Shown: in pieces, positions 564-64,000 of the stretch
Position numbering within the stretch: the stretch's first letter is position 1
Layout of the letters: every line of letters begins with the position of its first letter
Source: Squalus acanthias
Lineage: Eukaryota
Length of the DNA: 64,000 bases
Direction of reading: 5' to 3'
Assembly (NCBI GenBank): GCA_030390025.1
Contig: JASTWF010000033.1
Span: 6,264,001 to 6,328,000, forward strand
Translations under genes and position numbers: made by a program
Notes under the pieces: generated by a model
Told to the model about the DNA's origin: nothing
Databases searched by the model: none
Seen by the model: the letters and a program-made list of their open reading frames with translations, nothing else

Positions 564-2179
564 TCATAGAGTCATAGAGTTATAAAGCACAGAAAGAGGT
601 CCTTCGGCCCATCGTATCTGCGCCGGCCATCAAGCCCTATCTATTCTAATCCCATTTTCCTGCACTTGGTCCGTAGCCTTGTATGCTATGGCGTTTCAAG
701 TGTTCATCTAAATGCTTCTTGAATGTTGTGAGGGTTCCTGCCTCTACCACCCTTTCAGGCAGTGAGTTCCAGATTCCAACCAAACTCTGGGTGAAAAAGT
801 TTTTCCTCAAATCCCCTCTAAACCTGCTGCCCCTTACCTTGAAACTATGCCCCCTGGTTATTGAGCCCTCTACTAAGGGGAACAGTTCCTTTCTATCTAC
901 CCTATCTATGCCCCTCATAATTTTGTACACCTCAATCAGGTCCCCCCCTCAGCCTTCTCTGCTCGAAGGAAACCAACCCCAGCCTGTCCAGTCTATCTTC
1001 ATAGCTGAAACGCTCCAGCCCAGGTAACACCCTGGTGAATCTCCTCTGCACCCTCTCTAATGTAATCACATCCTTCCTATAGTGTGGCGACCAGAACTGC
1101 ACACAATATTCCAGTTGTGGCCTAACTAGCGTTTTGCACAGCTCCATCATAACCTCCCTGCTCTTATATTCTATGCCTCGGCTAATGAAGGCAAGTATCC
1201 CATATGCCTTCTTAACTAACTTATCTACCTGTCTTGCTGCCTTCAGGGATCTATATACATGCACACCAAAGTCCCTCTGATCCTCTGTCCTTCCTAGGGT
1301 CCTACCATTCATTGTTTATTCCCTTGCCTTGATAGTCCTCCCAAAATGCATCACCTCACACTTTTCAGGGTTAAATTCCATTTGCCACTGTTGTGCCCAT
1401 CTGACCAACCCGTCTATATGGTCCTGTAGCCTAAGGCTTCCCTCCTCGCTATTTACCACTCCACCAATTTTCGTGTCCTCTGCGAACTTTCTGATCATAC
1501 CTCCTACATTCATATCTAAATCATTAATGCACACTACAAACAGCAAGGGACCCAGCACCGATCCCTGCGGTACACCACTGGACACATGCTTCCAGTCACA
1601 AAAACAACCTTCGACCATCACCCTCTGCCTCCTGCTACTAACCCAATTTTGGATCCAATGTGCCAAATTGGCCTGGATCACATAGGCTCTTACCTTCTTG
1701 ACAAGTCTCCCATACCGGACATTGTCAAAAGCCTTACAGAAGTCCATGTAGACCACATCAACTGTACTACCCTCATCCACACACCTAGTCACCTCCTCGA
1801 AAAATTCAATCAAATTGGTTAGACATGATCTCCCCCTGGCAAAGCCATGATGACTATCATTGATTAATCCTTGCCTCTCCAAGTGGAGAGTAATTCTGTC
1901 CCTCAGAATGTTTTCCAATAATTTCCCTACCACTGATGTTAGGCTCACTGGCCTGTAATTCCCTGCTTTATCCCGACTACCCTTCTTGAATAATGGTACT
2001 ATGTTAGCTGTCCTCCAGTCCTCTGTCATCTCCCCTGTGGCCAGAGACGTTCTGAAAATTTGTGTCAGAGCTCCTGCAATCTCCTCCCTTGACTCCCACA
2101 ACAGCCTGGGATACATCTCGTCTGGGCGTGGGGATTTATCCACTTTTAAGCCAGCTAAAACCGATAATACATCCTCTCT
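564..2179 (-). mobile_element. 5'-truncated CR1 (HER1-like) LINE inserted in env 1
   Basis: RT motifs [30 protein letters not shown] and FNPEKC; (CTCTATGA)n tail; env reading resumes on both sides with a GAG overlap. Confidence 0.93.
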
Positions 2180-4703: not shown

Positions 4704-5119
4704 TGTGAGAAACACTTAATGAGCATTATGCCATATAGTTAGAAAGATGAAGACTATGGGCGAGTTGGCAAGTTTTGGGGTATAAGTTTTGTTGGACACT
4801 GATATTCGGGGCTATAGTCGAAGTTACCTGGTCAGGATCCAGTTACAGTTAGTCATACATCTCGTCATCGTTGAATTGACCTCTCATCTGGTGAATAGTA
4901 TGTATGTGCATTTGTTACAATCACCTGAGCTTAATGTCAATGATTTTAGATGTTGCTTGTGATAAGTGCATGACTTCAGTACAGTTTGTATTCTGGGAAT
5001 TACTGGTAACCTCTTGTTGATTTTTAAGTAAAAGAAGTTTCACAGGTTCATTGGGTTTGGTGTTGTCTGTTCCCCCAGTCGGAACTCTATAAACTCTCAG
5101 ACAATCAGAACGTCTTACA
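4704..5119 (+). repeat. Putative 3' LTR of ERV 1
   Basis: Purine tract AGTGATAGGAGGG is immediately followed by TGTGAG..., and the segment ends ...CTTACA (imperfect inverted ends) just before the satellite. The partner LTR is outside the window, so this is unverified. Confidence 0.5.
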
Positions 5120-7341
5120 GGATTGACTGAGTCCTCCTCCAGAGGGGACTGACCGAGACCTCCTCCAGAGGAGACTGACCGGGACCTCATCCAGAGGGGA
5201 CTGACCGAGACCTCCTCCAGAGGGGACTGACCGAGACCTCCTCCAGAGGAGACTGACCGGGACCTCATCCAGAGGAGACGGTCCAAGACCTTGTCCAGAG
5301 GGGACTGACCGAGACCTCCTCCAGAGGGGACTGACCGAGACCTCCTCCAGAGGAGACTGACCGGGACCTCATCCAGAGGAGACGGTCCAAGACCTTGTCC
5401 AGAGGGGACTGACCGAGACCTCCTCCAGAGGGGACTGACTGAGACCTCCTCCAGATAGACCGAGACCTCCTCCAGAGACTGACCGAGACCTCCTCCAGAG
5501 GGGACTGACTGAGACCTCCTCCAGAGACTGACTGAGACCTCCTCCAGAGGAGACTGACCGGGACCTTCTCCAGAGGAGACTGACTGAGACCATTTCCAGA
5601 GGAGACTGACCGGGACCTTCTCCAGAGGAGACTGACCGAGACCTTCTCCAGAGGAGACTGACCTGGACCTTCTCCTGTGGAGACTGACCGAGACCTCCTC
5701 CAGAGGAGACTGACCGGGACCTTCTCCAGAGGAGACTGACTGAGACCATTTCCAGAGGAGACTGACCGGGACCTTCTCCAGAGGAGACTGACCGAGACCT
5801 TCTCCAGAGGAGACTGACCTGGACCTTCTCCTGTGGAGACTGACCGAGACCTCCTCCAGAGGAGACTGACCGAGACCTCCTCCAGATGGGACTGACCGAG
5901 ACCTCCTCCAGAGGACACTGACCGTGACCTTCTCCTGTGGAGACTGACCGAGACCTCCTCCAGAGAGACTGACCGAGACCTCCTCCAGATGAGACTGACC
6001 GGGACCTTCTCCAGAGGACACTGACCGTGACCTTCTCCTGTGGAGACTGACCGAGACCTCCTCCAGAGGAGACTGACCGAGACCTCCTCCAGATGAGACT
6101 GACCGGGACCTTCTCCAGAGGAGACTGACCGAGACCTCCTCCAGAAGGGACTACCGAGACCTCCTCCTGAGGACACTGACCGTGACCTCCTCCAGAAGGG
6201 ACTGACCGAGACCTCCTCCAGAGGACACTGACCGTGACCTCCTCCAGAGGACACTGACCGTGACCTCCTCCAGATGGGACCGACCGAGACCTCCTCCAGA
6301 GACTGACCGAGACCTCCTCCAGAAGGGACTGACCGAGGCCTCCTCCAGAGGGGACTGACCGAGACCCTCTCCAGAGACTGACCGAGACCTTCTCCAGAAG
6401 GGACTGACCGAGGCCTCCTCCAGAGGAGACTGACCGAGACACTCTCCAGAGACTGACCGAGACCTCCTCCAGAAGGGACTGACCGAGACCTCCTCCAGAG
6501 GAGACTTACCGAGACCTCCCCCAGAAGGGACTGACCGAGACCTTCGCCAGAGGAGACTACCGAAGCCCCCTTGTGAGCGGACTGACCGAGGCCTCCTCCA
6601 GATGAGACTGAGCGAGATCTCTTCCAGATGAGACTGACTGAGACCTGCTCCATATGAGACTGACCGAGGCCTCCTCCAGATGAGACTGAGCGAGATCTCT
6701 TCCAGAGGAGACTGACTGAGACCTGCTCCATATGAGACTGACCGAGGCCTCCTCCAGATGAGACTGAGCGAGATCTCTTCCAGAAGAGACTGACCGTGGC
6801 CTCCTCCAATGAGACGAGCTCCTCCAGAGGGGACTGACCGAGACCTCCTCCAGAGGGGACTGACCGAGACCTCCTCCAGAGGGGACTGACCGAGACCTCC
6901 TCCAGAGGGGACTGACCGAGACCTCCTCCAGAGGGGACTGACCGAGACCTCCCCCAGAGGGGACTGGCCGAGACCTCCTCCAGAGGGGACTGACCGAGAC
7001 CTCCTCCAGAGGGACTGACCGAGCCCTCCCCAGAGGGGACTGACCGAGGTCTCCTCGAGAGGGGACTGACCGAGACCTCTCCAGAGGGGACTGACCGAGA
7101 CCTCCTCGAGAGGGGACTGACCGAGACCTCCTCCAGCGGGGACTGACCGAGACCTCCCCAGAGGGGACTGACCGAGACCTCCTCCAGAGGGGACTGACCG
7201 AGCCCTCCTCCAGAGGGGACTGACCGAGCCCTCCTCCAGAGGGGACTGACCGAGCCCTCCTCGAGAGGGGACTGACCGAGACCTCCTCGAGAGGGGACTG
7301 ACCGAGACCTCCTCGAGAGGGGACTGACCGAGGCCTCCTCC
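5120..7341. repeat. 26-bp minisatellite array (~2.2 kb)
   Basis: Unit GAGGGGACTGACCGAGACCTCCTCCA with variant blocks. Confidence 0.97.
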
Positions 7342-26500: not shown

Positions 26501-26936
26501 AAAATACACCACATCCACTGGCTCTCCCTTATCTATTCTACCAGTTACATCCTCAACAAATTTCAGTAGATTCGTCAAGCATGATTTACCTTTTGTAAAT
26601 CCATGTTGAATTTGTCCGATCCTGTCACTGTTTTCCAAGTGCTCTGCTATTACATCTTTTATAATGGACTCTAGCATTTTTTTCACTACCGATGTCAGAC
26701 TTACCGGTCTATAATTCTCTGTTTTCTCTCGACCACCTTTTTTAAATAGTGGGGTTACATTAGCTATCCTCCAATTCATGGGAACTGTTCCAGAGTCGAT
26801 AGAATTTTGGAAGATGACCAGCAATGCATCTACTATTTCTTGGGTGACTTCCTTACATACCCTATGATGTAGATTATCAGGCCCTGGGGATTTATCGGCC
26901 TTCAATCCCATCAATTTCCCTAATACCATTTCCCTA
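23563..26936 (-). mobile_element. CR1 LINE split by a younger opposite-strand CR1
   Basis: The 3' part (23563-24177) and 5' part (25921-26936) join in register (..AFIARRF|EYRNKDVLLQLY..). Confidence 0.88.
24178..25920 (+). mobile_element. Young 5'-truncated CR1 LINE nested in a CR1
   Basis: Long RT ORFs at 24163-25830, a CTATGTTT tail and an apparent TGTACT target duplication. Confidence 0.92.
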
Positions 26937-27970
26937 TGTAAGTGGTTTTTGATCCTAGCCCAATTGCTAGATGGACGGTTCGAATCGCCCCCGCCTTACG
27001 AAAGTTCTACACCCGGGAATTATTATTCAGAGTGTAAATGAAGTAATTCACGGACATGAATGTTTCAGTGAAAAATCAAACTTATATTTATTTGGTCTAA
27101 CATACACTGGCTAAAACATGCACTACTAAACGAAATTACTGATTCTGTGGAGAATAAAATCCAGGTTACAAACAACATACATACAGTACAAAACTGAGGA
27201 CTATGACAAGCAGCAATTCCCTTGTTGCTATGGTGGACTCTCATTCCACCCCTACCAACGAATTACTCAGTCGCATAAGGCCCTTTCGCCTGGCTGAAAC
27301 AAAGTAAGCTCTGACCCTCACAATAGCCCAAAAGCCTCACTTTTGAGAAAAACTCTGAGCCCTCTGGTTACCGGCTTGGGACACTCGAGATCATGTTTAC
27401 CCCCACACACATTCCGTCTCGATTGCTCCGCTTAGCTGCTTCTTCCTCTGGTACTTCTTGTTAGGTCGATCTTGTTGGGGCGAGAGAGAGAGAGAGAGAG
27501 ATAAGGTGGGAAAGGATCTATCTTTATAGGAGTCTTGCTACCCATATCTTTCCCGCCAATCTTTAAAATCCTTTTGTTTCTAAGCACTCCAGTGCTTAAT
27601 CAGTGATGGAGTCATCCTCAGACCCATGTGTACTCCGTGTTTGTACTAATGGCCCTAAGTCTGGGACAGAATTCGGTCTTTGTGTTGGGAAAAATTGGCT
27701 CCTCTCCAGCTGGCAAGTCCAGTGGGTTCATTGTTCTGCTTCTCTTCTGAGATGGAGGTGAGTAGTGCTTTTGCATAATCTGGATGCCTGACAGTTCTTC
27801 CGTCACAGCCAACTGCCATGCGTTCTCTGGAGTTTTAACAAACCACTTTTTCACATATCTGCCCAGGGTGAGCCCATCACAGGGAACATATCCTCAGAAA
27901 AATCCCATAATATAAACAAAATATTCTCGACTGAGTCCATTCTTCAAACAGAGACTTTGCGATCTCTGCA
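26937..27970 (-). repeat. 3' LTR of ERV 2
   Basis: Minus strand TGCAGAG...ACTTACA; direct repeat of 38399-39424; TATAAA at 27523-27528 and AATAAA at 27087-27092; preceded by the purine tract AAACGGGGGAC. Confidence 0.93.
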
Positions 27971-28243
27971 GTCCCCCGTTTAAAGCTTGTCTTTCCACAA
28001 AGCATCACTCGGTGAGACAGCAAAGGCCAAAGTCTCCCACAAGTGAAGCTGTTTCCCTCATTTTACATTTTAACCCCAGAGCTGTAACCCTTACTGCGTG
28101 TCATAGTTCCCTTCTCCCGAGTCAAATCATCAGCGAAACGGCTTCTGAACACATTCAAATGGCTGGGTTGCAATTCCCATTGACAAACTTCAAGTCAAAA
28201 TACAGAACATTAATAAGATCCACAGAAGGTTACCAAAAAGTCA

Positions 28244-28600
28244 CCGCGCACATCACACAGTACAGCATTGACAGGTGGTAACACATTACAATAACTCAAC
28301 AGCGCACATCACACAGTACAGCATTGACAGGTGGTAACACATTACAAAAATACAACAGCGCATATCACACAGTACAGCATTGACAGGTGGTAACACATTA
28401 CAATAACACAACAGCGCACATCACACAGTACAGCATTGACAGGTGGTAAGACATTACAATAATACAACAGCGCACATCACACAGTACAGCATTTACAGGT
28501 GGTAACACATTACAAAAATACAGCAGCGCACATCACACAGTACAGCATTGACAGGTGGTAACACATTACAAAAATACAACAGCACACATCACATAGTACA
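28244..28600. repeat. 56-bp tandem repeat (~6.5 copies) between env and the 3' LTR
   Basis: Unit CGCACATCACACAGTACAGCATTGACAGGTGGTAACACATTACAATAATACAACAG. Confidence 0.95.
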
Positions 28601-28757
28601 GATTGTAAAGCTATAACCAGAATACTATACACTCGCTTACACAACCTTGGTACATTACAAGTTTTTGCAGGGAGAAACCATCATCAACATAAATCAATTA
28701 CACCTTACCGGATCAATCTAACACCCTTTGCTACCGCGCTCGGAGCATCTGGCTCCA

Positions 28758-30006
28758 TCACTTGCAGCTGGTGTAGAACAAGTAGCTTACAAGCAACAAT
28801 TGTATGATAACTAATGCATGGGAACAGATGCGGATCCAGGGAGGAATCTCTATACTCAGACCGATGTCCCACCATGGTGGCGAGACAATCCCCTTCATCT
28901 CCTCCCCCACTTCTACTGTCTTTTGCTCCCTCCAAAGTGTAAAAATGTTTCTGGGAGAGTTCAACGGTCTTTATTAACTCAGTGAGATGTTCCGGCAGAA
29001 AAGGAATCATCCAGGTCCCTCTTCTCTGCCTCCCGGACCCCACACTATCCCCAACATTCAGATTATAAAGCTTTTCTTTCTCTACATTTCCATAGTCCAG
29101 TTCATAAAATTCCTGAAACGTCGCTTTTAACAGAGCTTCATAAAGCTTCTCCGTCTTCCTTGGACACCACACAGGCAGATGGACTTCAGTCAGGTTCAGG
29201 GTCACGGATGCCACGGCGTAGAGCACGTTCTGAAACAACACTTTGTCAGTCGGGATTAACACCAACCCATTCCCTGGACCCCTGGTGGTGGTGGGACACC
29301 CATCTACAGTCATCTGTACTGTCGGGGCTCTGGACGCGGGCTTCCTGGTGTATGAGATGAGCTCTGTGGCGTTGATGGTATTCGGGGGTTTTAGGATCAC
29401 ACAGGAGTCCACACTCCGATCCCAACCGATCCCACCCCTGGCGTCCTGCCATCGCCTGCTAAACGCGATCAACACACCTGCTGGGCAGATCTTTTCCGAG
29501 CCCCACATACACACATAAATCCCTTTCTCGGATTCCCACCACTTATCCCAACACACATTCACTCCTCCCTGAGAACCCGTGATCGTCCGGTACGTGTCAT
29601 GACTTAGTCTTTCCCAGTCAGCTGTCTGGTCCCCTGTATCCGCGCTCAGTTTCCTGAGCCACCACCACCTTCCCAGTGGAATATGTCCCCTGCAGCTAAG
29701 GCACACCCGTTTACCCTCTGTTACCCTAACCCGGGAGGTGATAACCCCTATTCTCGGGCATGGGATGGATGCTTCACCATAGGTGAACTTGTCATGACTG
29801 GAATAGCGGGTGGAATTCGACCCCAGCCATCCAGGCCAGCTTCCCTCGTGGAGATAGACGCTCGCCCCATCCTTCGAGCCACCTCCAGTGGTCATGGTCG
29901 GTCCGTCTCCGCCGGTGCAGCCGAAGATAACCGATTCCTCGGTGTCGCCCCTGTGACTCTCGCTGGCTTCAATCATGACGCTCAGGACTACCATGGCTGA
30001 CTTCAT
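28758..30006 (-). pseudogene. env: env of ERV 2: signal peptide, Ig-like domain, F2-like segment, furin site, internally deleted F1, TM anchor
   Basis: ATG at 30006 follows a pyrimidine-tract/CAG acceptor (30025-30026). Motifs: MKSAMVVLSVMI, RQRR at 29020-29031, a frameshift near 28930, then WWDIGLSIEIPPWIRICSHALVIIQLLLVSYLF. Confidence 0.87.
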
Positions 30007-30206
30007 CTTGTTCTTAGGCGTTCCCTGAAAAGACACAGAATGCAACGTTGTCCTTGGGTGATGCCTCACCTTTCCAGACGCAGCTACACACGATTACATT
30101 TGGTATCCACAGCATACATGTCAATCCAAACTATACAGACAAGCTAAGGCAACAGACAGGAGAGAAATAAGTTATGTACAGCGTCACCCGTCTCCGGGTG
30201 GCCACA

Positions 30207-31534
30207 CTAGGTCTCCTCGACCCTGGGCCTCTTACGACTCCGGCTTCCTTCGTTCAACGGTGTGTAAGGAGGCGTCCACGGCACCCTCGGCTGTGGGATC
30301 CTGACACTCCTTCTCACTCCTGCCCCTACAGGCGGAACGACTGGTCCCTCTGTGGGCTCCTCACTGTCCCAGATTATGGGCTGGAGACCCACAACTGTAG
30401 CGCAGCTCACCACTCCCTGCTGTTTCCTCCTCTTATCAGCTCTTTCCCCAGGGTTGAAAAGCTTCACTGATTGATATGGAACCACTTAGTGCGTCGAGGC
30501 ATTTTGACCACATATACCATTGGACTAGCCCTATCCACGATACTGTACGGTCCCATGTATAGCGGTTGAAAAGTCCCTACCCTGGCGAAGTTTCTAACCA
30601 TTACTTGCTCTCCGACCTTTCACTCGTGTTGCCTCTGAGGCTCAAGCAATAAACGATTTCTACGATGTTGCTTCCCCATGTTACTGGCAGCCTGCCAATG
30701 GGTCTGTCTGAGATGCTCAAACAAATTCTTAACAATCCTGTCCCGGTTCACCTCTCTCAACTGACCTTCTGTGAGAACCGGGGCCAGTACATGGCTGGGC
30801 GTTCTCATGACCCTGCCAGTCACGAGCTCATGTGGGGAATACCCTGTGCTTCTAGACGGGCTGGCTCGGACCCCCATCAGAACTAACGGCAAGACCTCCG
30901 CCCATTTTCTAGGCGAGTCTCCCGTCTCCTTCCGTAACCTTTCCTTGATGGTCCTATTCATCCGCTCCACGATCCCCGATGACTGCGTGTTGTGTGCGAC
31001 ATGCCATTTACCCTCTACACCTAGCATCTTCAGAGTCGCCTGCATGACTGCCGCTGTGAAGTGACTCCCCTGATCGGACTCCACATACCGTGGTAGCCGA
31101 GAGAACACTTCTCTCACTAGAATCCTTGCAGTCCACAAAGCTGTGGCTGTTCGGCATGGGAAGGCTTCTACCCATTTAGAGAACACATCCACCAGGACCA
31201 GGCAGTATGTGTAACCCACCTGCGCGGTGGGCAGCGGTCCGATATAATCGACCTGTATGGACTGCCATGGACCCTCCACTCTCCCAGTGTGTCCCATGGA
31301 AACGTTCCTTTTTGGAGGGTCAAGGTTGTTTGCACCACACACCAAGCAATAGCGCAGAAGTTGCGGAAGTCCTCCCTCAGTTGCGGCCAACACCCTGCCT
31401 GTTCCACCCGTTGCCAATGGTCTCCGGCCCGGGCTGCCCCGCTCCTGGACCCTCGTGGGACAACTGAAGGAATTATCTCCGGTGCTGCTGCAGAACTACC
31501 CACTGTTTCCCTCTAAAAACCATCTCTTCCTTTA
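30207..31534 (-). pseudogene. pol: Integrase region of ERV 2 pol
   Basis: CLVC, PWQSIQVDYIGPLP, VDVFSKWVEAFP, SDQGSHF, SSGIVERMNRTIK and a C-terminal YMGPY motif. Confidence 0.93.
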
Positions 31535-32958
31535 GAGTCATAGAGTCATAGAGTTATACAGCACAGAAAGAGGCCCTTCGGCCCCTCGTGTCCGCGCCGG
31601 CATTCAAGCCCTGTCTATTCTAATCCCATGTTCCAGCACTTGGTCCGTAGCCTTGTGTGCTATGGCGTGTCAAGTGCTCATCTAAATGATTCTTGAATAT
31701 TGTGAGGGTTCCTGCCTCTACCATCCTTTCAGGCAGTGATTTCCAGATTCCAACCACACTCTGGGTGAAAAAGTTTTTCCTCCAATCCCCTCTAAACCTC
31801 CTGCCCCTTCCCTTGAAACTATGCCCCCTGGTTATTGACCCCTCTACTAAGGGAAAACGTTCCTTTCTATCTACCCTATCTATGCCACTCATAATTGTGT
31901 ACACCTCAATCAGGTCCCCGCTCAGCCTTCTCTGCTCTAAGGAAAACAAGCCCAGCCTGTCCAGTCTCTCTTCATAGCTGAAGCGCTCCAGCCCAGGTAA
32001 CATCCTGGTGAATCTCCTCTGCACCCTCTCCAATGAACTCACATCCTTCCTATAGTGTGGCGACCAGAACTGCACACAGTATTCCAGCTGTGGCCGAACT
32101 ACCGTTTTGTACAGCTCCATCATAACCTCCCTGCTCTTATATTCTATGCCTCGGCTAATGAAGGCATGTTTCCCATATGCCTTTTTAACCACCTTATCAA
32201 CCTGTCCTGCTGCCTTCCGGGATCTATGTGCATGCTCACCAAGGTCCCTCTGATCCTCTGTCCTTCTTCGGGTCCTACCATTCATTGTGTATTCCGTTGT
32301 CTTGTTAGTCCTCCCAAAATGATTCACCTCACACTTTTCAGGGTTAAATTCCATTTGCCACTGTTCTGCCCATCTAACCAACCCGTCTATATAGTCCTGA
32401 AGCCGGAGGCTTCCCTCCTCACTATTTACCACGCCACCAATTTTCGTGTCATTTGCGAACTTACTGATCATACCTCCTACAGTCATATCTAAATCATTAA
32501 TGTACACTACAAACAGCAAAGGACCCAGCATTGGACACAGGCTTCCAGTCACAAAAACAACCTTCGACCATCACACTCTGCCTCCTGCCACTAAGCCAAT
32601 TTTGGATCAAAAGTGCCAAGTTGCACTGGATCCCATGGGCTTTTACCTTCTTGACCAGTCTCCCATGCGGGACTTTGTCAAAAGACTTACCGAAGTCCAT
32701 GTAGACTACATCAACTGCACTACCCTCATCCATACACCTAGTCACCCCCTCTAAAAATTCAATCAAATTGGTCAGACATGATCTCCCCCTGACAAAGTCA
32801 TGATGATTATCCTTGATTAATCCTTGCCTCTCCAAGTGGAGACTATTTCTGTCCCTCAGAATTTTTTCCAATAATTTCCCTACCACTGATGTTAGGCTCA
32901 CTGGCCTGTAATTCCCTGGTTTATCCCTACTACCCTTCTTGAATAATGGTACTACGTA
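31535..32958 (-). mobile_element. CR1 LINE inserted in pol (same subfamily as 564-2179)
   Basis: RT motifs and the same (CTCTATGA)n tail; TTTA duplication; pol reads ISV|KEEMVFRGKQWVV across the insertion. Confidence 0.92.
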
Positions 32959-35900
32959 TTTACCGAGATACCTGCCATTCCGTATGGACGCTCTACCTTA
33001 TCTCCCTTAGCCAGCGTCTCCAGAACAGTCTTTAGGACGGGATCCCGTGCCTGGACAATCTTTAGGTCCGGGGCCAATGTTTCCCCTGCACTCCCTTGGG
33101 CCCCAGCTTTGTCTCTGATCGCTGCTACCTGACTCGACCCATATGGATCCCAAAACGTGCCAGTTCGAGCACCCTCTTCGGTCATCACGTTGGCCTGCTG
33201 ATTGCCCTCCGCACGGGGTTCCCCCTTTGAATGGGCCTTAACTTTGTGGATATAGAAATCCCCCAGGGTTCCTATCCTTGTTATGATCTGTTGCAACAAT
33301 GGCTTTGTTGCTAGGGGTTTGCCGTCTGCAGATGTGAACCCGCGACGAGACCAAATGGCTAAATATTCTGTACACGAATTGCAAGTGAACATGCTGTCCC
33401 AGAAAATAGTGTAGGGCGTAGGGTATTATAGGGGAGGAGCTAAATACGATTAAAATCACTAAGGAATTGGTACTCAGTAAAATAATGGGACTCAAGGCGG
33501 ATAAATCCCCTGGACCTGATGGCTTTCATCCTAGGGTCTTGAGGGAAGTGGCAGTAGGGATTGTGGATGCTTTGGTAATAATTTTCCAAAATTCCCTGTA
33601 CTCAGCAAAGGTCCCGGCAGATTGGAAAACTGCTAATGTAACACCCTTATTTAAAAAGGTTATAGGCAGAAGGCTGGAAATTATAGACCAGTTAGCCTAA
33701 CATCTGTGGTGGGTAAAATTTTGGAGTCTATTATTAAGGAGACAGTAACGGAACATTTAGATAAACATAATTTAATAGGACAAAGTCAGCATGGCTTTAT
33801 GAAGGGGAAGTCATGTCTGACAAATTTGCTTGAGTTCTTTGAGGACATAACGTACAGGGTGGATAAAGGGGAACCAGTGGACGTAGTGTATTTAGACTTC
33901 TAGAAGGCATTCGACAAGGTGCCACATGAAAGATTAATGCTCAAGATAAAAAATCACTGGATTGGGGGTAATATTCTGGCATGGGTGGAGGATTGGTTAT
34001 CTAACAGGAAGCAGAGAGTTGGGATAAATGGTTCATTCTCGGACTGGCAACCAGTAGCCAGTGGTGTTCCGCAGGGGTCGTGCTGGGTCCCCAACTCTAT
34101 ATAATCTATATTAACGATTTGGAGGAGGGGACCGAGTGTAACATATCAAAGTTTGCAGATGATACAAGGATGGGAGGGAAAGTAGAAAGTGAGGAGGACA
34201 TTAAAAACGTACAAGGGGATATAGACAGGCTGGGTGAGTGGGCGGAGATTTGGCAGATGCAATACAATATTGGAAAATGTGAGGTTATGCACTTTGGCAG
34301 GAAAAATCAGAGAGCAAGTTATTATCTTAATGGCGAGAAACTGGAAAGTACTGCAGTACAAAGGGATCGGGGGGTCCAAGTGCAAGAAAATCAAAAAGTT
34401 ACTATGCAGGTGCAGCAGGTGATCAAGAAGGCCAACGGAATGTTGGCTTTTATTGCTAGGGGGATAGATTATAAAAACAGGGAGGTATTGCTGCAGTTAT
34501 ATAAGGTATTGGTAAGACCGCACCTGGAATATTGCGTACAGTTTTGGTGTCCATACTAAAGAAAAGACATACTTGCTCTCGAGGCAGTACAAAGAAGGTT
34601 CACTCGGTTAATTCCGGGGATGAGGGGGTGGACATATAAGGAGAGGTTGAGTAGATTGGGACTCTACTCATTGGAGTTCAGAAGAATGAGAGACGATCTT
34701 ATTGAAACATATAAGATTGTGAAGGGGCTTGATCGGGTGGATGCGGTAAGGATGTTCCCAAGGATGGTTGAAACTAGAACTAGGGGGCATAAACTTAGAA
34801 TAGGGGGCTGCTCTTTCAAAACCGAGATGAGGAGAAACTTCTTCACTCAGAGGGTAGTAGGTCTGTGGAATTTGCTGCCCCAGGAAGCTGTGGAAGCTAC
34901 ATCATTAAATAAATTTAAAACAGAAATAGATAGTTCCCTAGAAGTAAAGGGAATTACGGGTTACGGTGAGCGGGCAGGAAATTGGACATGAGGCTGAGTT
35001 CGGATCGGTCAGGGCCCTGTGGGTGGCAGAGCGGGCCCAGGGGCTGAGTGGCCGGGTCCTGCTCCTACTTCTTGTGTTCTTTAGATTTGAGGTTAGGATC
35101 AGATCAGCCATGATCTTATTGAATGGCGGAGCAGGCTCGCGGGGACGATTGGCCTACTCCTGCTACTATTTCTTATGTTCTTATGTTCTTATGGTACACT
35201 TAGGGGTGAGTAACCACATACACCACCGCCGACAGTTCAGCGTGCTGGGCGCTCATGCTGCTCGGGAGTTTAATGGCCTTGGCAATGCCTGCCTTTGGGT
35301 CAAAATTCCCGCATCCAGTGTGTTGCTCCCCTGCCACCACTGTACTGGGCCCGTCTACATGGATCCCAGCCCGAAACCCTATGTCTACGTCCCATACCCC
35401 TTCAACAGAACATTTGTGGGCCACCCCTGGGTAGATCAAATTTGCGGCGAGCTTGGGCTCACAGAGGCCTTTCACACTCAAATTTGTCTGAGAGAGCAAT
35501 AAAGTCCAGCGAGCAATGCGTGCACTGCTCACCGTGCCGTCCTTTATCCTCCCATCCAGAAGCATCTGAGTGGGCTAATGATGGGTTAAGAGAGTTAACG
35601 GGGATGCCCCCGTGAAGATTTGTGATCTCCTCACGGCCCAATGTGTGGCAAGCAGGTGCCTCTCACAATTGGAGTACCCCCTCTCTACATCTGTGAGGAT
35701 TCTTGATGAGTATACCACAGGCCTCAGCTTGCCATGCCGCTCCTGGAGCAGCACTGCGCTCAAACTCTCCCCTGTGGCAGCTACCTCCAAAAATAACTCC
35801 TTTCCCCCATCAACGCTCCTAAAGCAGGTGCGGTCTGCAGATCACTCTTCAGATGACTAAAAGCTGCCATGCAATCCTCATCCCACTCCCAGACCACTCC

Positions 35901-37287
35901 CTTTTGAAGCAGCCGGAGTAGACTAGCTGCCGTAGCGGCATAGTCCTCTATGAAATCCCTGCAATACCCTGTGAGACCCAGGAAGGATCTTACCCCCGTT
36001 ATCGTGGTCGGGGCAGGTAGCTCCTGTACCGCCTTCCTTTTCACCTTATCGATCGCCCTCTCGCCAGCACGTATGGTCAGCCTGAGGAATTTTACGTCCT
36101 GCTGGCCGATCTGTGCTTTCTTGGGATTAACCTTGAACCCAGCTTCCTTTTACAGACTCAGCAGCTCAGCCAGCAGGGGGCCATGCTCCTACCCCTCGTT
36201 GGAGAACAAAAGCAGATCGTCCACGTACTGTACAAGCCGCTGCGGTCTGCTGAACCCTTTTAAACAGTTGGCCATGTATTGGTGGAAAATAGAAGGGCTG
36301 TTATGAAACCCTTGGGGAAGGCAGGTCCATGTGTACTGCTGACCCTTGAAAGTGAACGTGAATTTAGAGGGATTTTGATAGGGATAGACCAGAATCTGTT
36401 TGAAATGTCCAGCACCGTGAATGTTTTCGCGGATGCCGGGATACTCCCGATCAGGTCAGCTACGGCTGCGACGGTAGGGGCACAGGCTGGGATGTTCTTG
36501 TTAAGAACTCGATAGTCCACAGTGGCTCTCCACAAATTGCCCGGTTTCCTAACCTGCCAAATCCGAGAGTTCACATGGGTCACTATGGGTCTCAACACAC
36601 CCTGCTCAACCAATGATCCCAATGCCGCCTCTAAATCCGCCTCTGCCTCTCTAGGGAAGTTGTACTGTTTCTGTGGTCGAGACATGGGGTCTCCTTCTAT
36701 TCTGACCTCCACCCCTATTACCCTCCCACAGTCGTGCTTGTGTGTAGCGAATGCCGCGAGGTTGGCTCGCACATCCGCTATGTACTCCGCCGGGGTAGAA
36801 GTGACCAAACGTTCAAGGTCATAACTATCCTTGGGCTTCATCGTACACACGGTTCCCTTGCCTTGCTTCCCTGGTATAACTACCACCTCCTTCTCCTTTC
36901 CCGTGCATACTGCCCCCGAAAGACAGTGATTCCGGAAATCCACCAATATCTTGTGGGCCAGTATGAAGACTGCCCCCAAAATGCCTATTCCTCCCGCTCC
37001 CACCGCATCAGGACACAATTCCACTCCGTATGGAGTGTACCCAGATCGATGGCTAGCGGGATGGAGAAAGACCCAGCCTGTCCGTTCCCGGTGGACCCTA
37101 CTAAGTTATATGGGACCCCGCTCGATAGAGATGATGTGGTCCGGTTATCCGCATAGACAATGATGCATGAAGCTCCAGTGTCCAGCAGATCGGTCCCTTG
37201 CACCTTCTCCACCACCATCTTCACGCACGGTCTCTTCCAAGCATCATATCTTAGTGGGCACAGGTAAACGGGCTGAGAAGCCCCTAG
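32959..37287 (-). pseudogene. pol: Protease-RT-tether-RNase H region of ERV 2 pol (interrupted by a CR1)
   Basis: Protease LLDTGAS; RT WRATVDYRVLN, VLDISNRFWSI, QYTWTCLPQGFHNSP and QYVDDLLL (YVDD 36216-36227); tether RPVVYSSRIL..CERHLLA; RNase H VDG..SAQHAEL|DS..WSRRGFTSADGKP..KVKAH..GNQQA. Confidence 0.92.
33426..35192 (+). mobile_element. CR1 LINE inserted in the RNase H of pol
   Basis: RT motifs, a (CTTATGTT)n tail and a GGTA duplication at the junctions. Confidence 0.92.
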
Positions 37288-38348
37288 TCATGGGTCGGGA
37301 TTGTTTGGGGCGGATGGGAGTACGCTGCCCGCTGCTGCATCCACCCTACCCTGCCCTGCCGTAAAGACTGCGCGGAGAGCAGCCACTAATACCGCGAACG
37401 GATCAGTGCTGCTTCCTGCCAAAGCTGCGGCTTTCTGCACTGGCGCTGGAGGATCCCCTTTCCCGCTCCTTTTGTCAGAGACTGGGCAGTCTTTCCTCCA
37501 GTGCCCTTTACTCCCACACCCATAACAACCCTGCTTCTTCTCTGAGATACCCCCTTCCTGGCGCCACTCTCTTCAAACGTTGCCTCCACTAGGCTTTAAC
37601 TCGTGTACTCTGCCCTTTGGTTTGTCATCCTCACCCCTACCATTCTTAAAAGAGCGAGTTAACTGCCGGATCACACTCTATTCTGTGGTCTGGGGATCCC
37701 TGGAATCGAACCACCCCTCTGCTTTGGCCTTGATCCTGGCAGGCTGTTCGCCACCAGGGTCCTCAGCCAATGAGCTCTAGGCTCCCCCTGCAGCTGCGCC
37801 CGGTCAGGCACCCCCGCACAGGCACTCCGGTAGACGGGCCAAAGCCTGGCGCCTATGTATGCCACCTGAATATCCTTCAACTGCTCTCCCAGCACCTTTA
37901 CCTCACTCGACAAGCGAGCGTTCTCCTCCCTAACCATCCTCTCGTTCCCCTTTGCCTCAGTTACCTGGCATTCCAGGAACTCCTTATGGTTACGGAAGGT
38001 TCCCTCCTGGCTTATTTTTCCCTGCTTCTCATTCTTTACCTCCGTGCATAACCTGCTCCCTACTACAGCCCTTGCATCTGACTGTGCCTCGGACTCCCTG
38101 ATCTCTGCCTCTAACTTAGCAACCTGCTTATCTAGCAGTTGGACGTGTCTTCGTAGACAGATGAGCCATATCGCCTTTTCAATGCTGCTCCTATGGTCCT
38201 TGCCCTCCGTCCATTCTGCCGCTGCGTCCACCGGACGCTCAGACCGCAACAAGCCTAGCACCCACTTCTTAGTGACGTTAACCTTCTTAAACTCATATGA
38301 AGAAATCATTTCCTCCATTTGGGATCTTTCACCAGAAGCCCTGTCCAT
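37288..38348 (-). pseudogene. gag: gag of ERV 2 (coiled-coil N-terminus, partial capsid, one CCHC knuckle)
   Basis: ATG lies 50 nt from the 5' LTR; heptad-rich N-terminus; CYGCGSKGHWRKDC at about 37486-37527; ends in TGA at 37288-37290; frameshifted and short. Confidence 0.85.
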
Positions 38349-38374
38349 GACTGATTTACACTCCTGTAACTCAG

Positions 38375-38393
38375 GTCCTGCCCGCAGTCGCCA
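38375..38393 (-). promoter_or_regulatory. Primer binding site (tRNA-Ser-like)
   Basis: TGGCGACTGCGGGCAGGA begins 5 nt after the LTR end and resembles the complement of tRNA-Ser 3' ends (TGGCG...GCAGGA); the match is imperfect. Confidence 0.6.
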
Positions 38394-38398
38394 AGAGA

Positions 38399-39424
38399 TG
38401 TAAGTGTTTTTTTGATCCTAGCTCAATTGCTAGACGGACGGTTCAAATCGCCCCCGCCTTACGAAAATTGTACACCCGGGAATTATTATTCAGAGTGTAA
38501 ATGAAATAAGTCGCGGACAGGAATGCTTCGGTGAGAAATCAATCTTATATTTATTTGGTCTAACATACACTGGCTAAAACATTCACTACTAAACTAAATC
38601 ACTGTCTCTGTGGAGAATAAAATCCAGGTTACAAATAACATACATACAGTACAAAACTTAGGACTATGAATAAGGTAATTCCCTTGTTGCTATGGTGGAC
38701 TCTAATTCCACCCCTACCAACGAATTACCCAGTCGCATAAGCCGTTTCGCCTGGCTGAAACAAACAAAGCTCCCACCCCGGAATAGCCCAAAAACTTCAC
38801 TTCTGAGAAAAACTCTGAGCCCTCTGGTTACCGGCTTGGGACATTCGAGATCATGCTTAACCCCACACACAGTCCGTCTCGATCGCTCCACTTAGCTGCT
38901 TCTTCCTCTGGTACATCTTGTTAGGTCGAGCTTGTTGGGGCGAGAGAGAGACAGAGATAGAGAGAAAGGTGGGAAAGGGTTTATCTTTTTGGAGTCTCGC
39001 TACCCCTATGTATCCCGCCAATTTTTAAAATCATTTTATTTCTAAGCACTACGGTGCTTAATCAGTGATGGGGTCATCCATGAGTATTCCATGATTGGAC
39101 TAATGGCCCTAAGTCTGGGATATATTTCGGTCTTTGTGTTGGGCAAAACTGGCTCCTCTCCAGCTGGCTAGGCCACTGGGTTCATTGTTCTGCTTCTCTT
39201 CTCAGATGGAGGTGAGAAGAGCTTTTCCATATTCTGGATGACTGACAGTTGTTTTTTCACAGCCAACTGTCATGCGTTTTCTGGAGTTTTAACAAACCAG
39301 TTATTCACATATTTACACAGGGTGATCCCATCACAGGGAAAATAACCTCAGAAAATTTCCATAAAGTCCACAAAATATTCTCGACTGAGTCCATTCTTCA
39401 AACAGAGACTTTGCGATCTCTTCA
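38399..39424 (-). repeat. 5' LTR of ERV 2
   Basis: Direct repeat of 26937-27970; its TATA position is mutated (CAAAAA on the minus strand). Confidence 0.93.
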
Positions 39425-42400
39425 GATATTAGGTGGATTTGGGAGCAGCTGCCGATATTAGATGTGGTTATGAAGAGCTGCGGATATTAGGTGGTGTGGG
39501 GAGGCCCTGAGGATATTAGGTGGGATGGTGAGGAGCTCAGGATATTAGGTGGGGTGGGGAGGAGCTGAGGATATCAGGTGGGGTGGGGAGGAGCTGAGGA
39601 TATTAGATGGGGTGGGGAGGAGCTCAGGATATTAGGTGGGGTGGGGAGGAGCTGAGGATATTAGGTGGGGTGGGGAGGAGCTGAGGACAAAAGGTGGGGT
39701 GGGGAGGAGCTGAGGATATTAGGTGGGGCGGGGAGGAGCTGAGGATATTAGGTGGGGTGGGGGGAGCTGAGGATATTAGGTGGGGTGGGGAGGAGCTGAG
39801 GATATTAGGTGGGGTGGGGAGGAGCTGAGGATATTAGGTGGGGTGGGGAGGAGCTGAGGATATTAGGTGGGGTGGGGAGGAGCTGAGGATATTAGGTGGG
39901 CTGGGGAGGAGCTGAGGAAATTAGGTGTGGTGGGGAGGAGCTGAGGATATTAGGTGGGATGGGGAGAAGCTGAGGATATTAGGTGGGGTGGGGAGGTGCT
40001 AAGGATATTCGTTGGGGTGGGGAGGAGCTGAGGATATTAGGTGGGGTGGGGAGGAGCTGAGGATATTAGATGGTGTGGGGAGGAGCTGAAGATATTAGGT
40101 GGGGTGGGGAGGAGCTGAGGATATTAGTTGGGTTCAGGATGAGCTGTGGATATTAGGTGGGGTCGGGAGGAGCTGAGGATATTAGGTGGGGTGGAGAGAA
40201 GCTGAGGATATTAGGTGGGGAGGAGCTGAGGATATTAGGTGGGGTGGGGAGGAGCTGAGGATATTAGGTGGGGTGGGGAGGAGCTGAGGATATTAGGTGG
40301 GGTGGGTAGGAGCTGAAGATATTAGTTGGGGTGGGGAGGAGCCGAGGATATTAGGTGGGGTGGGGTGGAGCTGACGATATTAGGTGGGGTGGGGGGGAGC
40401 TGAGGATATTAGGTGAATTGGGGAGGAGATGAGGATATTAGGTGGGCTGGGGAGGTGCTGATGATATTAGGTGTGTTCACGAGGAGCGGAGGATATTATG
40501 TTGGGTGAGGAGGAGCTGAGGATATTATCTGGGGTGGGGGGAGCTGAGGATATTAGGTGGAGTAGGGAGGTGCTGAGGATATTAGGTGGGGTGTGGAAGA
40601 GCTGAGGATATTAGGTGGGTTCAGGAGGAGCTGAGGATATTAGGTGGGGTGGGGAGGAGCTGAGGATATTAGAGGGTTGGGATGAGCTGAGGATATTAAG
40701 TGGGCTGGGGAGGAGCTGCGGATATCAGATGGGGTAGGGAGGAGCTGAGGATATTAGGTGGGGTGGCGAGGAGCTGCGGATATCAGATGGGGAAGGGAGG
40801 AGCTGAGGATATTAGGTGGGGTGGGGAGGAGCTGAGGATATTAGGTGGGGTGGGGAGGAGCTGAGGAAATTAGTTGGGGTTTGGGAGGAACTGAGGATAT
40901 TAGTTGGGTTCAGGATGAGCTGTGGATATTAGGTAGGGTGGGGAGGAGCTGAGGATATTAGGTGGGGTGGAGAGAAGCTGAGGATATTAGGTGGGGAGGA
41001 GCTGATGATATTAGGTGGGGTGGGGTTGAGCTGAGGATATTAGGTGGGGTGGGTAGGAGCTGAAGATATTAGGTGGGGTGGAGAGGAGCTGAGGATATTA
41101 GTTGGGGTGTGGAGGAGCTGAGGATATTAGGTGAGGTGGGGAGGAGCTGAGGATATTAGGTGGGGTGGGGAGGTGCTGAGGATATTAGGTGGGTTCACGA
41201 GGAGCGGAGGATATTAGGTGGGGTGAGGAGGAGCTGAGGACATTATCTGGGGTGGGAGGAGCTGAGGATATTAGGTGGGGTGGGGAGGTGCTGAGGATAT
41301 TAAGTGGGGTGGGAAGGAGCTGAGTATATCAGATGGGGTGGGGAGGAGCTGAGGATATTACTTGGGGTCGGAGGAGCTGAGGATATTAGTTGGGGTGGGG
41401 AGTTGCTGAGGATATTCGTTGGGGTGGGGAGGAGCTGAGGATATTAGTTTGGGTGGGGAGGTGCTGAGGATATTAAGTGGGGTGGGGAGGAGCTGAGGAT
41501 ATTAGATGGGGTGGGAGGTGCTGAGGATATTAGGTGGGGTGTGGAGGAGCTGAAGATATTAGGTGGGTTCAGGAGAAGCTGAGGATATTAGGTGGGTTCA
41601 GGAGGAGCTGAGGATATTAGGTGGGGTGGGGAGGAGCTGAGGATATTAGAGGGTTGGGATGAGCTGAGGATATTAGGTGGGGTGGGTAGGAGCTGAGTAT
41701 ATCAGATGGGGTGGGGAGGAGCTGAGGATATTAGATGGGTTGGGGAGGAGCTGAGGATATTACTTGCGGTCGGAGGAGCTGAGGATATTAGTTGGGGTGG
41801 GGAGTTGCTGAGGATATTCGTTGGGGTGGCGAGGAGCTGAGGATATTAGTTTGGGTGGGGAGGTGCTGAGGATATTAAGTGGGGTGAGGAGGAGCTGAGG
41901 ATATTAGATGGTGTGGGAGGTGCTGAGGTTATTAGGTGGGGTGAGGAGGAGCTGAGGATATTAGATGAGGTGGGAGGTGCTGAAGATATTAGGTGGGTTC
42001 AGGAGAAGCTGAGGATATTAGGTGTGGTGGGGAGTAGCTGAGGTTATTAGGTGGGGTGGGGAGGAGCTGAGGATATTAGGTGGGGTTTGGGAGGAACTGA
42101 GGATATTAGTTGTGGTGGGGAGGAGCTGAGGATATTAGTTGGGGTGGGGAGGTGCTGAGGATATTAGGTGGGTTCACAAGGAGCGGAGGATATTAGGTGG
42201 GGTGCGGAGGAGCTGAGGATATTATCTGGGGTGGGGGGAGCTGAGGATATTAGGTGGAGTAGGGAGGTGCTGAGGATATTAGGTGGGGTGTGGAAGAGCT
42301 GAGGATATTAGGTGGGTTCAGGAGGAGCTGAGGATATTAGGTGGGGTGGGGAGGAGCTGAGGATATTAGAGGGTTGGGATGAGCTGAGGATATTAAGTGG

Positions 42401-45112
42401 GCTGGGGAGGAGCTGCGGATATCAGATGGGGTAGGGAGGAGCTGAGGATATTAGGTGGGGTGGGGAGGAGCTGCGGATATCAGATGGGGAAGGGAGGAGC
42501 TGAGGATATTAGGTGGGGTGGGGAGGAGCTGAGGATATTAGGTGGGGTGGAGAGAAGCTGAGGATATTAGGTGGGGAGGAGCTGATGATATTAGGTGGGG
42601 TGGGGAGGAGCTGAGGATATTAGGTGGGGTGGGGAGGAGCTGAGGATATTAGGTGGGGTGGGTAGGAGCTGAAGATATTAGGTGGGGTGGAGAGGAGCTG
42701 AGGATATTAGTTGGGGTGTGGAGGAGCTGAGGATATTAGGTGAGGTGGGGAGGAGCTGAGGATATTAGTTAGGGTGGGGAGGTGCTGAGGATATTAGGTG
42801 GGTTCACGAGGAGCGGAGGATATTAGGTGGGGTGAGGAGGAGCTGAGGATATTATCTGGGGTGGGAGGAGCTGAGGATATTAGGTGGGGTGGGGAGGTGC
42901 TGAGGATATTAAGTGGGGTGGGAAGGAGCTGAGTATATCAGATGGGGTGGGGAGGAGCTGAGGATATTTCTTGGGGTCGGAGGAGCTGAGGATATTAGTT
43001 GGGGTGGGGAGTTGCTGAGGATATTCGTTGGGGTGGGGAGGAGCTGAGGATATTAGTTTGGGTGGGGAGGTGCTGAGGATATTAAGTGGGGTGGGGAGGA
43101 GCTGAGGATATTAGATGGGGTGGGAGGTGCTGAGGATATTAGGTGGGGTGTGGAGGAGCTGAAGATATTAGGTGGGTTCAGGAGAAGCTGAGGATATTAG
43201 GTGGGTTCAGGAGGAGCTGAGGATATTAGGTGGGGTGGGGAGGAGCTGAGGATATTAGAGGGTTGGGATGAGCTGTGGATATTAGGTGGGGTGGGTAGGA
43301 GCTGAGTATATCAGATGGGGTGGGGAGGAGTTGAGGATATTAGATGGGTTGGGGAGGAGCTGAGGATATTACTTGCGGTCGGAGGAGCTGAGGATATTAG
43401 TTGGGGTGGGGAGTTGCTGAGGATATTCGTTGGGGTGGCGAGGAGCTGAGGATATTAGTTTGGGTGGGGAGGTGCTGAGGATATTAAGTGGGGTGAGGAG
43501 GAGCTGAGGATATTAGATGGGGTGGGAGGTGCTGAGGATATTAGGTGGGGTGAGGAGGAGCTGAGGATATTAGATGAGGTGGGAGGTGCTGAAGATATTA
43601 GGTGGGTTCAGGAGAAGCTGAGGATATTAGGTGGGTTCAGGAGGAGCTGAGTATATTAGGTGTGGTGGGGAGTAGCTGAGGTTATTAGGTGGGGTGGGGA
43701 GGAGCTGAGGATATTAGGTGGGGTTTGGGAGGAACTGAGGATATTAGTTGTGGTGGGGAGGAGCTGAGGATATTAGTTGGGGTGGGGAGGTGCTGAGGAT
43801 ATTAGGTGGGTTCACAAGGAGCGGAGGATATTAGGTGGGGTGAGGAGGAGCTGAGGATATTATCTGGGGTGGGAGGAGCTGAGGATATTAGGTGGGGTGG
43901 GGAGGTGCTGAGGATATTAGGTGGGGTGTGGAGGAGCTGAGGATATTAGGTGGGTCCAGGAGGAGCTGAGGATATTAGGTGGGGTGGGGAGGAGCTGAGG
44001 ATATTAGTTGGGTTCAGGATGAGCTGTGGATATTAGGTGGGGTGGGGAGGAGCTGAGGATATTAGGTGGGGTGGAGAGAAGCTGAGGATATTAGGTGGGG
44101 AGGAGCTGATGATATTAGGTGGGCTGGGGAGGAGCTGAGGATATTAGGTGGGGTGGGGAGGAGCTGAGGATATTAGGTGGGGTGGGTAGGAGCTTAAGAT
44201 ATTAGGTGGGGTGGAGAGGAGCTGAGGATATTAGTTGGGGTGTGGAGGAGCTGAGGATATTAGGTGAGGTGGGGAGGAGCTGAGGATATTAGGTGGGGTG
44301 GGGAGGTGCTGAGGATATTAGGTGGGTTCACGAGGAGCGGAGGATATTAGGTGGGGCGAGGAGGAGCTGAGGATATTATCTGGGGTGGGAGGAGCTGAGG
44401 ATATTAGGTGGGGTGGGGAGGTGCTGAGGATATTAGGTGGGGTGTGGAGGAGCTGAGGATATTAGGTGGGTTCAGGAGGAGCTGAGGATATTAGGTGGGG
44501 TGGGGAGGAGCTGAGGATATTAGCTGGGGTGGGATGAGCTGAGGATATTAAGTGGGGTGGGAAGGAGCTGAGTATATCAAATGGGGTGGGGAGGAGCTGA
44601 GGATATTAGATGGGGTGGGGAGGAGCTGAGGATATTACTTGGGGTCGGAGGAGCTGAGGATATTAGTTGGGGTGGGGAGTTGCTGAGGATATTCGTTGGG
44701 GTGGGGAGGAGCTGAGGATATTAGTTTGGGTGGGGAGGTGCTGAGGATATTAAGTGGGGTGGGGAGGAGCTGAGGATATTAGATGGGGTGGGAGGTGCTG
44801 AGGATATTAGGTGGGGTGTGGAGGAGCTGAAGATATTAGGTGGGTTCAGGAGAAGCTGAGGATATTAGGTGGGTTCATGAGGAGCTGAGGATATTAGGTG
44901 GGGTGGGGAGGAGCTGAGGATATTAGGTGGGTTCAGGATGAGCTGTGGATATTAGGTGGGGTGGGGAGGAGCTGAGGATATTAGGTGGGGTGGAGAGAAG
45001 CTGAGGATATTAGTTGGGGAGGAGCTGAGGATATTAGGTGGGGTGGGGAGGAGCTGAGGATATTAGGTGGGGTGGAGAGGAGCTGAGGATATTAGATGGG
45101 ATGGGGAGGAGT
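39425..45112. repeat. 29-bp G-rich minisatellite (~5.7 kb)
   Basis: Unit GAGCTGAGGATATTAGGTGGGGTGGGGAG with higher-order duplication. Confidence 0.98.
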
Positions 45113-52804: not shown

Positions 52805-54015
52805 AAGTGGATGTGGTGTATTTGGAATTTCAAAAGGCTTTCGATAAGGTCCCGCATAAGAGATTAGCAGGTAAATTTAAGGCACATGGGATTGGGGGCA
52901 AGGTATTGACTTGGAGAGAACTGGTTGGCGGATAAAAAGCAGAGAGTAGGAATTAATGAGTTTTTCTCCAAGTGGCAGGCAGTGACTAGTGGGGTGCCGC
53001 AGGGATCGGTCCTTGGACCCCAGCAATTCACAATATACATTAATGATCTGGATAAATGAACTAAATGTAATATCTCCAAGTTTGCAGATGACACAAAGCT
53101 GGATGGGCGTGTGTGCTCCGAGGAGGATACTGAGAAACTCCAGGATGATTTGGACAGGTTGGGTGAGTGGGCAGAAGCGTGGCAGATGCAATATAACGTG
53201 GATAAGTGCGAGGTTATCCACTTTGGTGTCAAAAACAGAAAGGCAAACTATTATCTGAATGGCAATAGATTGGGAGAAAGGGGAAGTGCAACGAGGCCTG
53301 GGTGTCCTTGTGCACCAGTCGCTGAAAGTAAGCATGCAGTTGCAGCAGGCGGTGAAGAAGGCAGATGGTATGTTGGCCTTCATAGCGAAAGGGTTTGAGT
53401 ATAGGAACAGGGATGTCCTGCTGCAGTTGTACAGGGCCTTGGTGAGACAACACCTTGAGTACTGTGTGCAGTTTTGGTCGCCTTATCTGAGGAAGGATGT
53501 TCTTGCCATGGAAGGAGTTCAGCGAAGATTCACAAGGCTGATACCTGGGATGGCAGGAATGACATATGAGGAGAGATTGGGTCGATTGGGCTTATACTCG
53601 CTGGAGTATAGAAGAATGAGAGGGGAACTCATCGAAAAATTTAAATTCTGACAGGTCTGGTCAAACTAGATGCAGGAAGAATGTTCCCGGTGGTCGGAGA
53701 GTCCAGAACCAGGGGTCATAATCTAAGGATAAGGGGTAAGCCATTTAGGACAGAAATGAGGAAGAATTTCTTCACCCAGAGAGGGGTGAACCTGTGGAAT
53801 TCTTTACCACAGAAGGTAGTTGAGGCCAAGTCATTAAATATGTTCAAGAATGAGTTAGATATATTTCTTAAAGCTAATGGTATCAAGGGATATGGGGAGA
53901 AGCCAGGTACAGGGTACTGAGTTTGGATTATCAGCCATGATCTCATCGAATGGAGGAGCAGGCTCGAGGGGCCGAATGGCCTACTCCTGCTCCTATCTTC
54001 TATGTTTCTATGTTC
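52805..54015 (+). mobile_element. Young 5'-truncated CR1 LINE
   Basis: Same subfamily as 24178-25920; CTATGTTT tail. Confidence 0.92.
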
Positions 54016-54056
54016 CTGTGTCCGGATCGGACATCTCCAAGACTGGGTATTGGACA

Positions 54057-64000
<9,944 letters not shown>

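Follow-up and report, generated by a model that had tools for sequence, protein, structure and literature searches.

Suppression of an in-frame stop codon is accepted for snakehead retrovirus (SnRV) and for gamma- and epsilonretroviruses, and Ovex1 is presumed to use it as well (PMC1224870, PMC2717909). UGA occurs at several retroviral gag-pol junctions: section 4.1.2 of PMC13517186 gives UGAAGA for SSSV, UGACGA for ZFERV and UGAAGU for a frog ERV, and the gag-pol stop of XtERV-S is TGA (PMC8278194). Readthrough at UGA-CUA is described for alphaviruses, PSIV and cellular genes (PMC13517186, PMC4132726). In AQP4, OPRL1, OPRK1 and MAPK10 it is driven by UGA-CUAG, for which 12 downstream nucleotides suffice; conservation of the AQP4 extension goes as deep as cartilaginous fishes (PMC4132726). 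The original prediction for the locus studied here took UGA-CUAG as known from alphaviruses, AQP4 and OPRL1, and MLV as using UAG with a pseudoknot; the passages of PMC4132726 and PMC13517186 on these systems agree. The 2026 review PMC13517186 treats the cis-signals of epsilonretrovirus readthrough as unclear, and the part of it covered here lists no retroviral UGA-CUA junction. For comparison we used locus L033, whose pattern is that of snakehead retrovirus on the basis of a 99% match to P0010 and of the UAGGGC junction given in PMC13517186. It carries one zinc knuckle and an in-frame TAG-GGC, and its protease Asp is the 32nd codon after the stop.

The window, by which we mean the whole 64,000-nucleotide stretch of Squalus acanthias DNA that was analysed, holds a decayed LTR provirus on the minus strand (39425-26936). 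Its parts follow the order LTR-gag-PR-RT-tether-RNase H-IN-env-LTR, with env recognised by position, Cys content and an RQRR motif only. The 5' LTR (38398..39425, minus strand), whose uncertain outer edge adjoins a satellite, is 88.8% identical to the 3' LTR (26936..27971, minus strand; K2P 0.10). A candidate primer-binding site that begins with TGG lies a few bases past the 5' LTR end (~38393-38376, minus strand). The gag measures 1058 nt from the first ATG to the TGA (37291-38348, minus strand), that is ~353 codons compared with a 625-codon ORF in L033. Its N-terminal part (37671..38348, minus strand) is frameshifted, matches no Pfam family and is identified as Gag by position only, and three further stops (37779, 37680 and 37575) interrupt this side of the gene. 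No capsid-like match was found for the gag of this copy, and an internal deletion is possible. The C-terminal piece (37291..37572, minus strand) has one CCHC knuckle at ~37527-37486, in the same frame as the TGA and upstream of it (Pfam zf-CCHC, E 1.4e-5, above the cut-off), and a spacer that ends in NNPDP.

Past the stop, an in-frame continuation (36985..37287, minus strand) contains the protease N-terminal motif L..D.W.RP.V, which precedes the first ATG, and then DTGAS (translation and tblastn); farther downstream the protease of this copy is frameshifted. The remaining protease, the RT (with YVDD) and the tether lie in a broken pol (35212..36967, minus strand) that tblastn with the frog Pol P0002 matched at 37-49% identity. 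The Pfam RVT_1 match of the RT piece is weak, and its best PDB matches are foamy virus Pol. An RNase H piece (33012..33410, minus strand; Pfam RNase_H, E 1.1e-7) and an integrase piece (30467..31363, minus strand; Pfam rve, E 4.6e-11) follow. At the env position stands a Cys-rich ORF of 462 codons with an RQRR motif (28705..30093, minus strand), 56% identical over 153 aa to the whale-shark protein P0044. This ORF is still open despite the wrecked pol and has 14 Cys and three N-glycosylation sequons; it shows no transmembrane stretch and no Pfam family, and an Atlas search with it gave only leads below 0.9, a weak Ig-fold. Two LINE insertions split pol: one at 33449..35189, which matches other copies in the window, has an RT-type translation and does not belong to the provirus, and a second at 31535..32957 (90.9% identity to window positions 561-2004). 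The former is presumably CR1-like. With these insertions, several frameshifts and seven other in-frame stops in the pieces of gag and pol that were examined, the copy is dead and produces no Pol. The surroundings are repeat-rich with many LINE copies, and include a tandem array between env and the 3' LTR (28234-28605) and large 29-, 18- and 26-bp satellites (39350-45100, 54000-64000 and 5017-6280). A search of Rfam over 36900-39500 gave a single, chance-level match.

Where gag meets pro, the minus strand reads AAC AAT CCC GAC CCA TGA CTA GGG GCT, with the TGA at 37290-37288 (on the plus strand, 37288-37290 is tca and 37284-37287 is ctag). The original description, in which the zinc-knuckle frame runs through NNPDP TGA CTA G and on in the same frame to LLDTGAS, proved exact in both sequence and translation. 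The frame past the TGA is open for 100 codons (37287-36988), through LGASQPVYLCPLRYDAWKRPCVKM...LLDTGAS, and the catalytic Asp of the protease is the 36th codon downstream of the stop. The gag stop and the tetranucleotide after it, TGA-CTAG (37284..37290, minus strand), have the type II arrangement of UGA followed by CUA(G) and form a putative type II readthrough site. Over both strands of the window, CTAG follows 8 of 2526 TGA triplets (~0.3%, this junction counted); none of the seven further in-frame stops noted in this copy's pieces of gag and pol has CTAG after it. We consider the feature real and, judging from sequence, estimate a probability of about 0.85 that it serves Gag-Pol synthesis as a type II readthrough site.

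The arrangement of the protease calls for translation across the stop. The first in-frame AUG lies only 12 codons ahead of the catalytic Asp, and tblastn of the N-termini of relatives' proteases (P0022, P0170, P0211) showed that likeness to them starts upstream of this AUG. Because protease likeness begins before the first AUG, the stretch after the stop must be translated; a restart there would shorten the protease. In the mechanism that we propose, the virus from which this ERV family descends would end Gag at the UGA, and a minority of ribosomes would decode the UGA with a near-cognate tRNA and go on to make Gag-Pro-Pol. The CUAG immediately following the stop (the Beier-Grimm type II context) would promote the leak, probably with no need for an MLV-type pseudoknot. 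From the sequence we infer this readthrough, how efficient it is and that it does not depend on RNA structure.

As the copy is otherwise dead, the window by itself could not tell a signal from decay, and other copies were compared. Part of the region was present in 20 of the 24 sequencing runs listed (eight studies), and the contigs of four runs were compared over 37140-37500 at 80% likeness, with 71, 357, 237 and 10 contigs aligned for organisms A, B, F and C. A variant row in this comparison needs at least 4% of the depth, which hides rarer variants; contigs also drop rare variants, and depth is not copy number. Over 37140-37500 there were 39 variant rows (four runs, four organisms), none of them within 37270-37296, and no common indel was listed in the four runs. 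Transition rows stood at 15 of the 17 CpGs of this region, and other copies had CpG at 3 of its 49 CA/TG dinucleotides, the TGA stop not being one of these. A sense codon such as CGA or TGG in other copies had been named beforehand as the result that would refute the idea, and none of the four runs had a variant row at the stop. Decay from CGA to TGA is rejected, since CpG changes are visible elsewhere and the stop shows none; a frameshift at the junction is likewise rejected, because gag and pol share one frame and there is no common indel. The TGA, as judged from these sequences, is the family state and not decay of this copy.

In a diverged subfamily the TGA is in register with the protease. 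Of 677 pieces, 32 were inspected, and three of these, all X6, bridge an intact site with at least 31 letters on each side; their consensus (three contigs) reads TGA-CTG-G. One X1 contig has TGA-CTA-G, with 7/7 bases of the heptamer and 6/17 of the flank matching by eye, but X1 spans the stop incompletely (depth 0 at 37297); in one X13 contig the junction site is deleted. Invariance of TGACTAG across copies, which the original prediction had proposed to examine, thus held to the extent that no variant reached 4% of depth in the four runs, but it failed in X6, which reads CTG, and in the X13 contig with its deletion. Since most non-CpG positions are equally without variant rows, the invariance speaks for the family state and not for special selection on CTAG; for CTAG as such, the sequences no more than hint at selection. 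The claim that this lineage makes Pol by UGA-CUAG readthrough gains support from the family state of the stop, and readthrough itself would follow from the sequence context.

Stop and context are conserved in relatives, in the four runs (with CTG in one subfamily) and in lokiretroviruses, which have the same hexamer as the window. A metagenome scan gave 31 loci, of which only L001, L002, L004 and L024 have an interpretable retroviral gag-pol junction; the junction count leaves aside L003 (loki-like, decayed), L026-L028 (short fragments) and the remainder, which are Gypsy-like in look. In L004 (~1801) and L024 (2420) the junction is an in-frame TAG-AGG-GGC, 37 codons ahead of the protease Asp. 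We take these two, which group with or resemble ERV-L, to be ERV-L-like. Both loki contigs with a junction (2/2) carry TGA-CTA with gag and pol in frame, as TGA CTA AGT in L001 (2264-2272) and TGA CTA GGC in L002 (2177-2185). Close behind the L001 junction stands a strong hairpin (z -3.0 over 70 nt). The env ORFs of L001 and L002 match PF00523 with E 1.2e-5 and 0.0022, below the curated cut-off; a PF00523-like env is a hallmark of lokiretroviruses (PMC7947760).

Published lokiretrovirus consensus sequences gave a similar picture. Among the matches listed for the supplement of PMC7947760, 17 TGACTAG occurrences include four at a gag-pol junction (TGA CTA GG in Ofa, Cne, Pyo and Sau), and Dcl, Lro and Bsp proved on targeted look-up to have TGA CTA AGC. 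TGA-CTA is present in 7/7 stop-bearing consensus junctions seen in this supplement, all in frame with pol by eye. The supplement has at least 14 'pol gene' entries, and the junction was seen in these seven and not in Aro, Lch, Bpe, Lca, Ape, Tfu or Rca; because some look-ups searched for the TGA-CTA motif itself, other contexts in the supplement could have been missed. Two further entries, Pma and Pfl, carry a fused gag-pol annotation. The authors of PMC7947760 begin pol at a later codon, and the Tfu protein has X then L-S at the matching place. As these lokiretroviruses are akin to one another, they represent one lineage and not nine events. The terms readthrough, stop codon and suppression had no match in the main text of PMC7947760 or in PMC9040795.

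The position of the element was assessed in a careful RT tree of 38 selected rows, in which the window RT was read with X at its breaks. The window RT grouped with the retroviruses against the Ty3/Gypsy outgroup (100/99). Lokiretroviruses formed a 100/100 clade without the window, and all other retroviruses, the window included, grouped at 97/88; an AU test did not reject a clade of the window plus lokiretroviruses (p = 0.07). Within the larger group the window had no firm place among basal frog and coelacanth lineages in the careful tree, and quick trees grouped it with these lineages at SH-aLRT 95 and 85. It grouped with SnRV in one quick tree only (SH-aLRT 93); in a second quick tree (97) and in the careful tree (93/95) SnRV joined class I, apart from the window. 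Among named protein matches a whale-shark protein had the highest identity, which points to a cartilaginous fish as the probable host; the other best protein relatives were frog Pol (P0002, P0004) and proteins of turtle and coelacanth. Word-based protein searches in which the junction was read through as X gave no match at near or longer lengths, which is weak evidence, and viral contigs held no match to either the window RT or P0002 when scanned. The env-position ORF has no Pfam match to the Mononegavirales fusion protein (PF00523) of lokiretroviruses and no BLAST similarity to the env of L002, but the ORF may be truncated. Filing the element as a lokiretrovirus was rejected; by bootstrap its RT falls outside the loki clade, and no PF00523-like env was seen. 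We treat it as a basal, unclassified retrovirus whose layout resembles that of SnRV.

Three other explanations of the junction were weighed. Pol might be made in the foamy fashion from a spliced mRNA, as spumaviruses do from a separate spliced transcript (PMC1224870, PMC8278194), the conserved TAG-G then being a splice acceptor and not a readthrough context. The foamy Pol matches of the RT among solved structures fit this idea, as do an AG at 37284, preceded by a stretch with pyrimidines at 9 of 14 positions, and the in-frame ATG that follows (-3 A, +4 G). However, an ATG that stands 12 codons ahead of the Asp would lose the conserved protease N-terminus, the X6 subfamily has no AG at that place, and in lokiretroviruses TGA-CTA is constant but the AG stands one base farther on in some (CTAAG) than in others (CTAG). 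Foamy viruses also differ from the element in two respects: spumavirus Gag has no Cys-His box (PMC5210030), whereas zf-CCHC is present in the window, and spumavirus pol has its own start in a separate frame (PMC8278194), whereas the window uses the gag frame. On these two grounds foamy membership was rejected, and splicing as the source of Pol appears highly improbable. We give even less credence to the idea that the virus had a fused gag-pol and that the TGA arose as an early nonsense mutation in a non-autonomous lineage, from which it was copied to all members. The heavy decay and short gag of this copy would suit such a history, and so would the lokiretrovirus consensus entries in PMC7947760 that are annotated as fused gag-pol, but the stop is common to four organisms and a diverged subfamily, it takes the position of L033's own in-frame stop, and its context is found after only ~0.3% of TGAs.

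The third explanation accepts readthrough but attributes it mainly to downstream RNA structure or to simple leakiness of UGA-C, with the full CUAG incidental. The CTG variant in X6 agrees with this, as does the z score of L001 at 70 nt. The original prediction had also proposed to fold the ~150 nt downstream of the stop; with a fold model that excludes pseudoknots, applied to the sequence of a decayed copy, this gave z -1.24 over 161 nt and no convincing structure. Over six lengths z ran from +0.5 to -2.1 in the same model, and the value that favours structure (-2.1, for 200 nt downstream) stands against +0.5 to -1.6 at the other five. Moreover, CTA, one of six Leu codons, is used in 9/9 lokiretrovirus junctions seen with a stop, which argues against an incidental context. 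We regard this third explanation as unlikely, and we keep to readthrough promoted by the type II context as the preferred reading.

UGA at a retroviral gag-pol junction is already known; it is the CUA(G) context that looks unreported. No report of a retroviral UGA-CUA(G) gag-pol junction was found in open-access full text. The alphavirus and cellular type II signal would stand at the gag-pol junction of two deep retroviral lineages. One could imagine that UGA-CUA readthrough was the ancestral retroviral route to Pol, kept in lokiretroviruses (in this reading the sister to all other retroviruses; compare the 97/88 of the careful RT tree) and in the present basal lineage, and that UAG plus structure, frameshifting or splicing later replaced it. 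We find this history, taken as a whole, doubtful. The simpler reading is convergence on a short motif at which vertebrate ribosomes already leak. The finding suggests a route of lokiretrovirus Pol expression, a point absent from the main text of the discovery paper (PMC7947760), and bears on the ancestral strategy of Pol expression, a character used in retrovirus classification (PMC1224870). For ERV dating and the ranking of ERVs by intactness, such stops should not count as inactivating mutations. In addition, the junctions are short, testable readthrough candidates.

Among known systems, the window resembles SnRV, as represented by L033, in having a single CCHC knuckle (one Cys-His box), gag-pro-pol in one frame with an in-frame stop, and the protease Asp 32-36 codons downstream. 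Their RT pieces are 38-39% identical; however, the gag stop of L033 is the amber UAG, in a type III-like UAG-GGC, whereas the window has UGA-CUAG, and the careful tree keeps the two apart. MoMLV likewise has gag-pro-pol in frame but uses UAG and an H-type pseudoknot, whereas the window has another stop and context, without the UAG-G of gammaretroviral type III sites and without strong local structure in the pseudoknot-free model. SSSV, ZFERV, RMEV and XtERV-S share with the window an in-frame UGA between gag and pol, aquatic hosts and presumed readthrough, yet none of the UGA contexts reported for them (UGAAGA, UGACGA and UGAAGU, XtERV-S not included) equals the UGA-CUA of the window. Lokiretroviruses (L001, L002 and the seven published consensus junctions) have TGA-CTA at the gag stop with pol in frame, as in the window, which differs from them in its zinc knuckle, in its distance from stop to Asp (36 versus 73 codons) and in having no Fusion_gly-like env. 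The type II sites of alphaviruses, PSIV, AQP4, OPRL1, OPRK1 and MAPK10 have a heptamer identical to that of the window. In alphaviruses such a site gates polymerase synthesis, as it putatively does here; that of the window is a retroviral gag-pro junction known from sequence alone. The site in the window would thus most likely work in the manner of alphavirus and AQP4-type readthrough, in the role that termination suppression has in SnRV and MLV.
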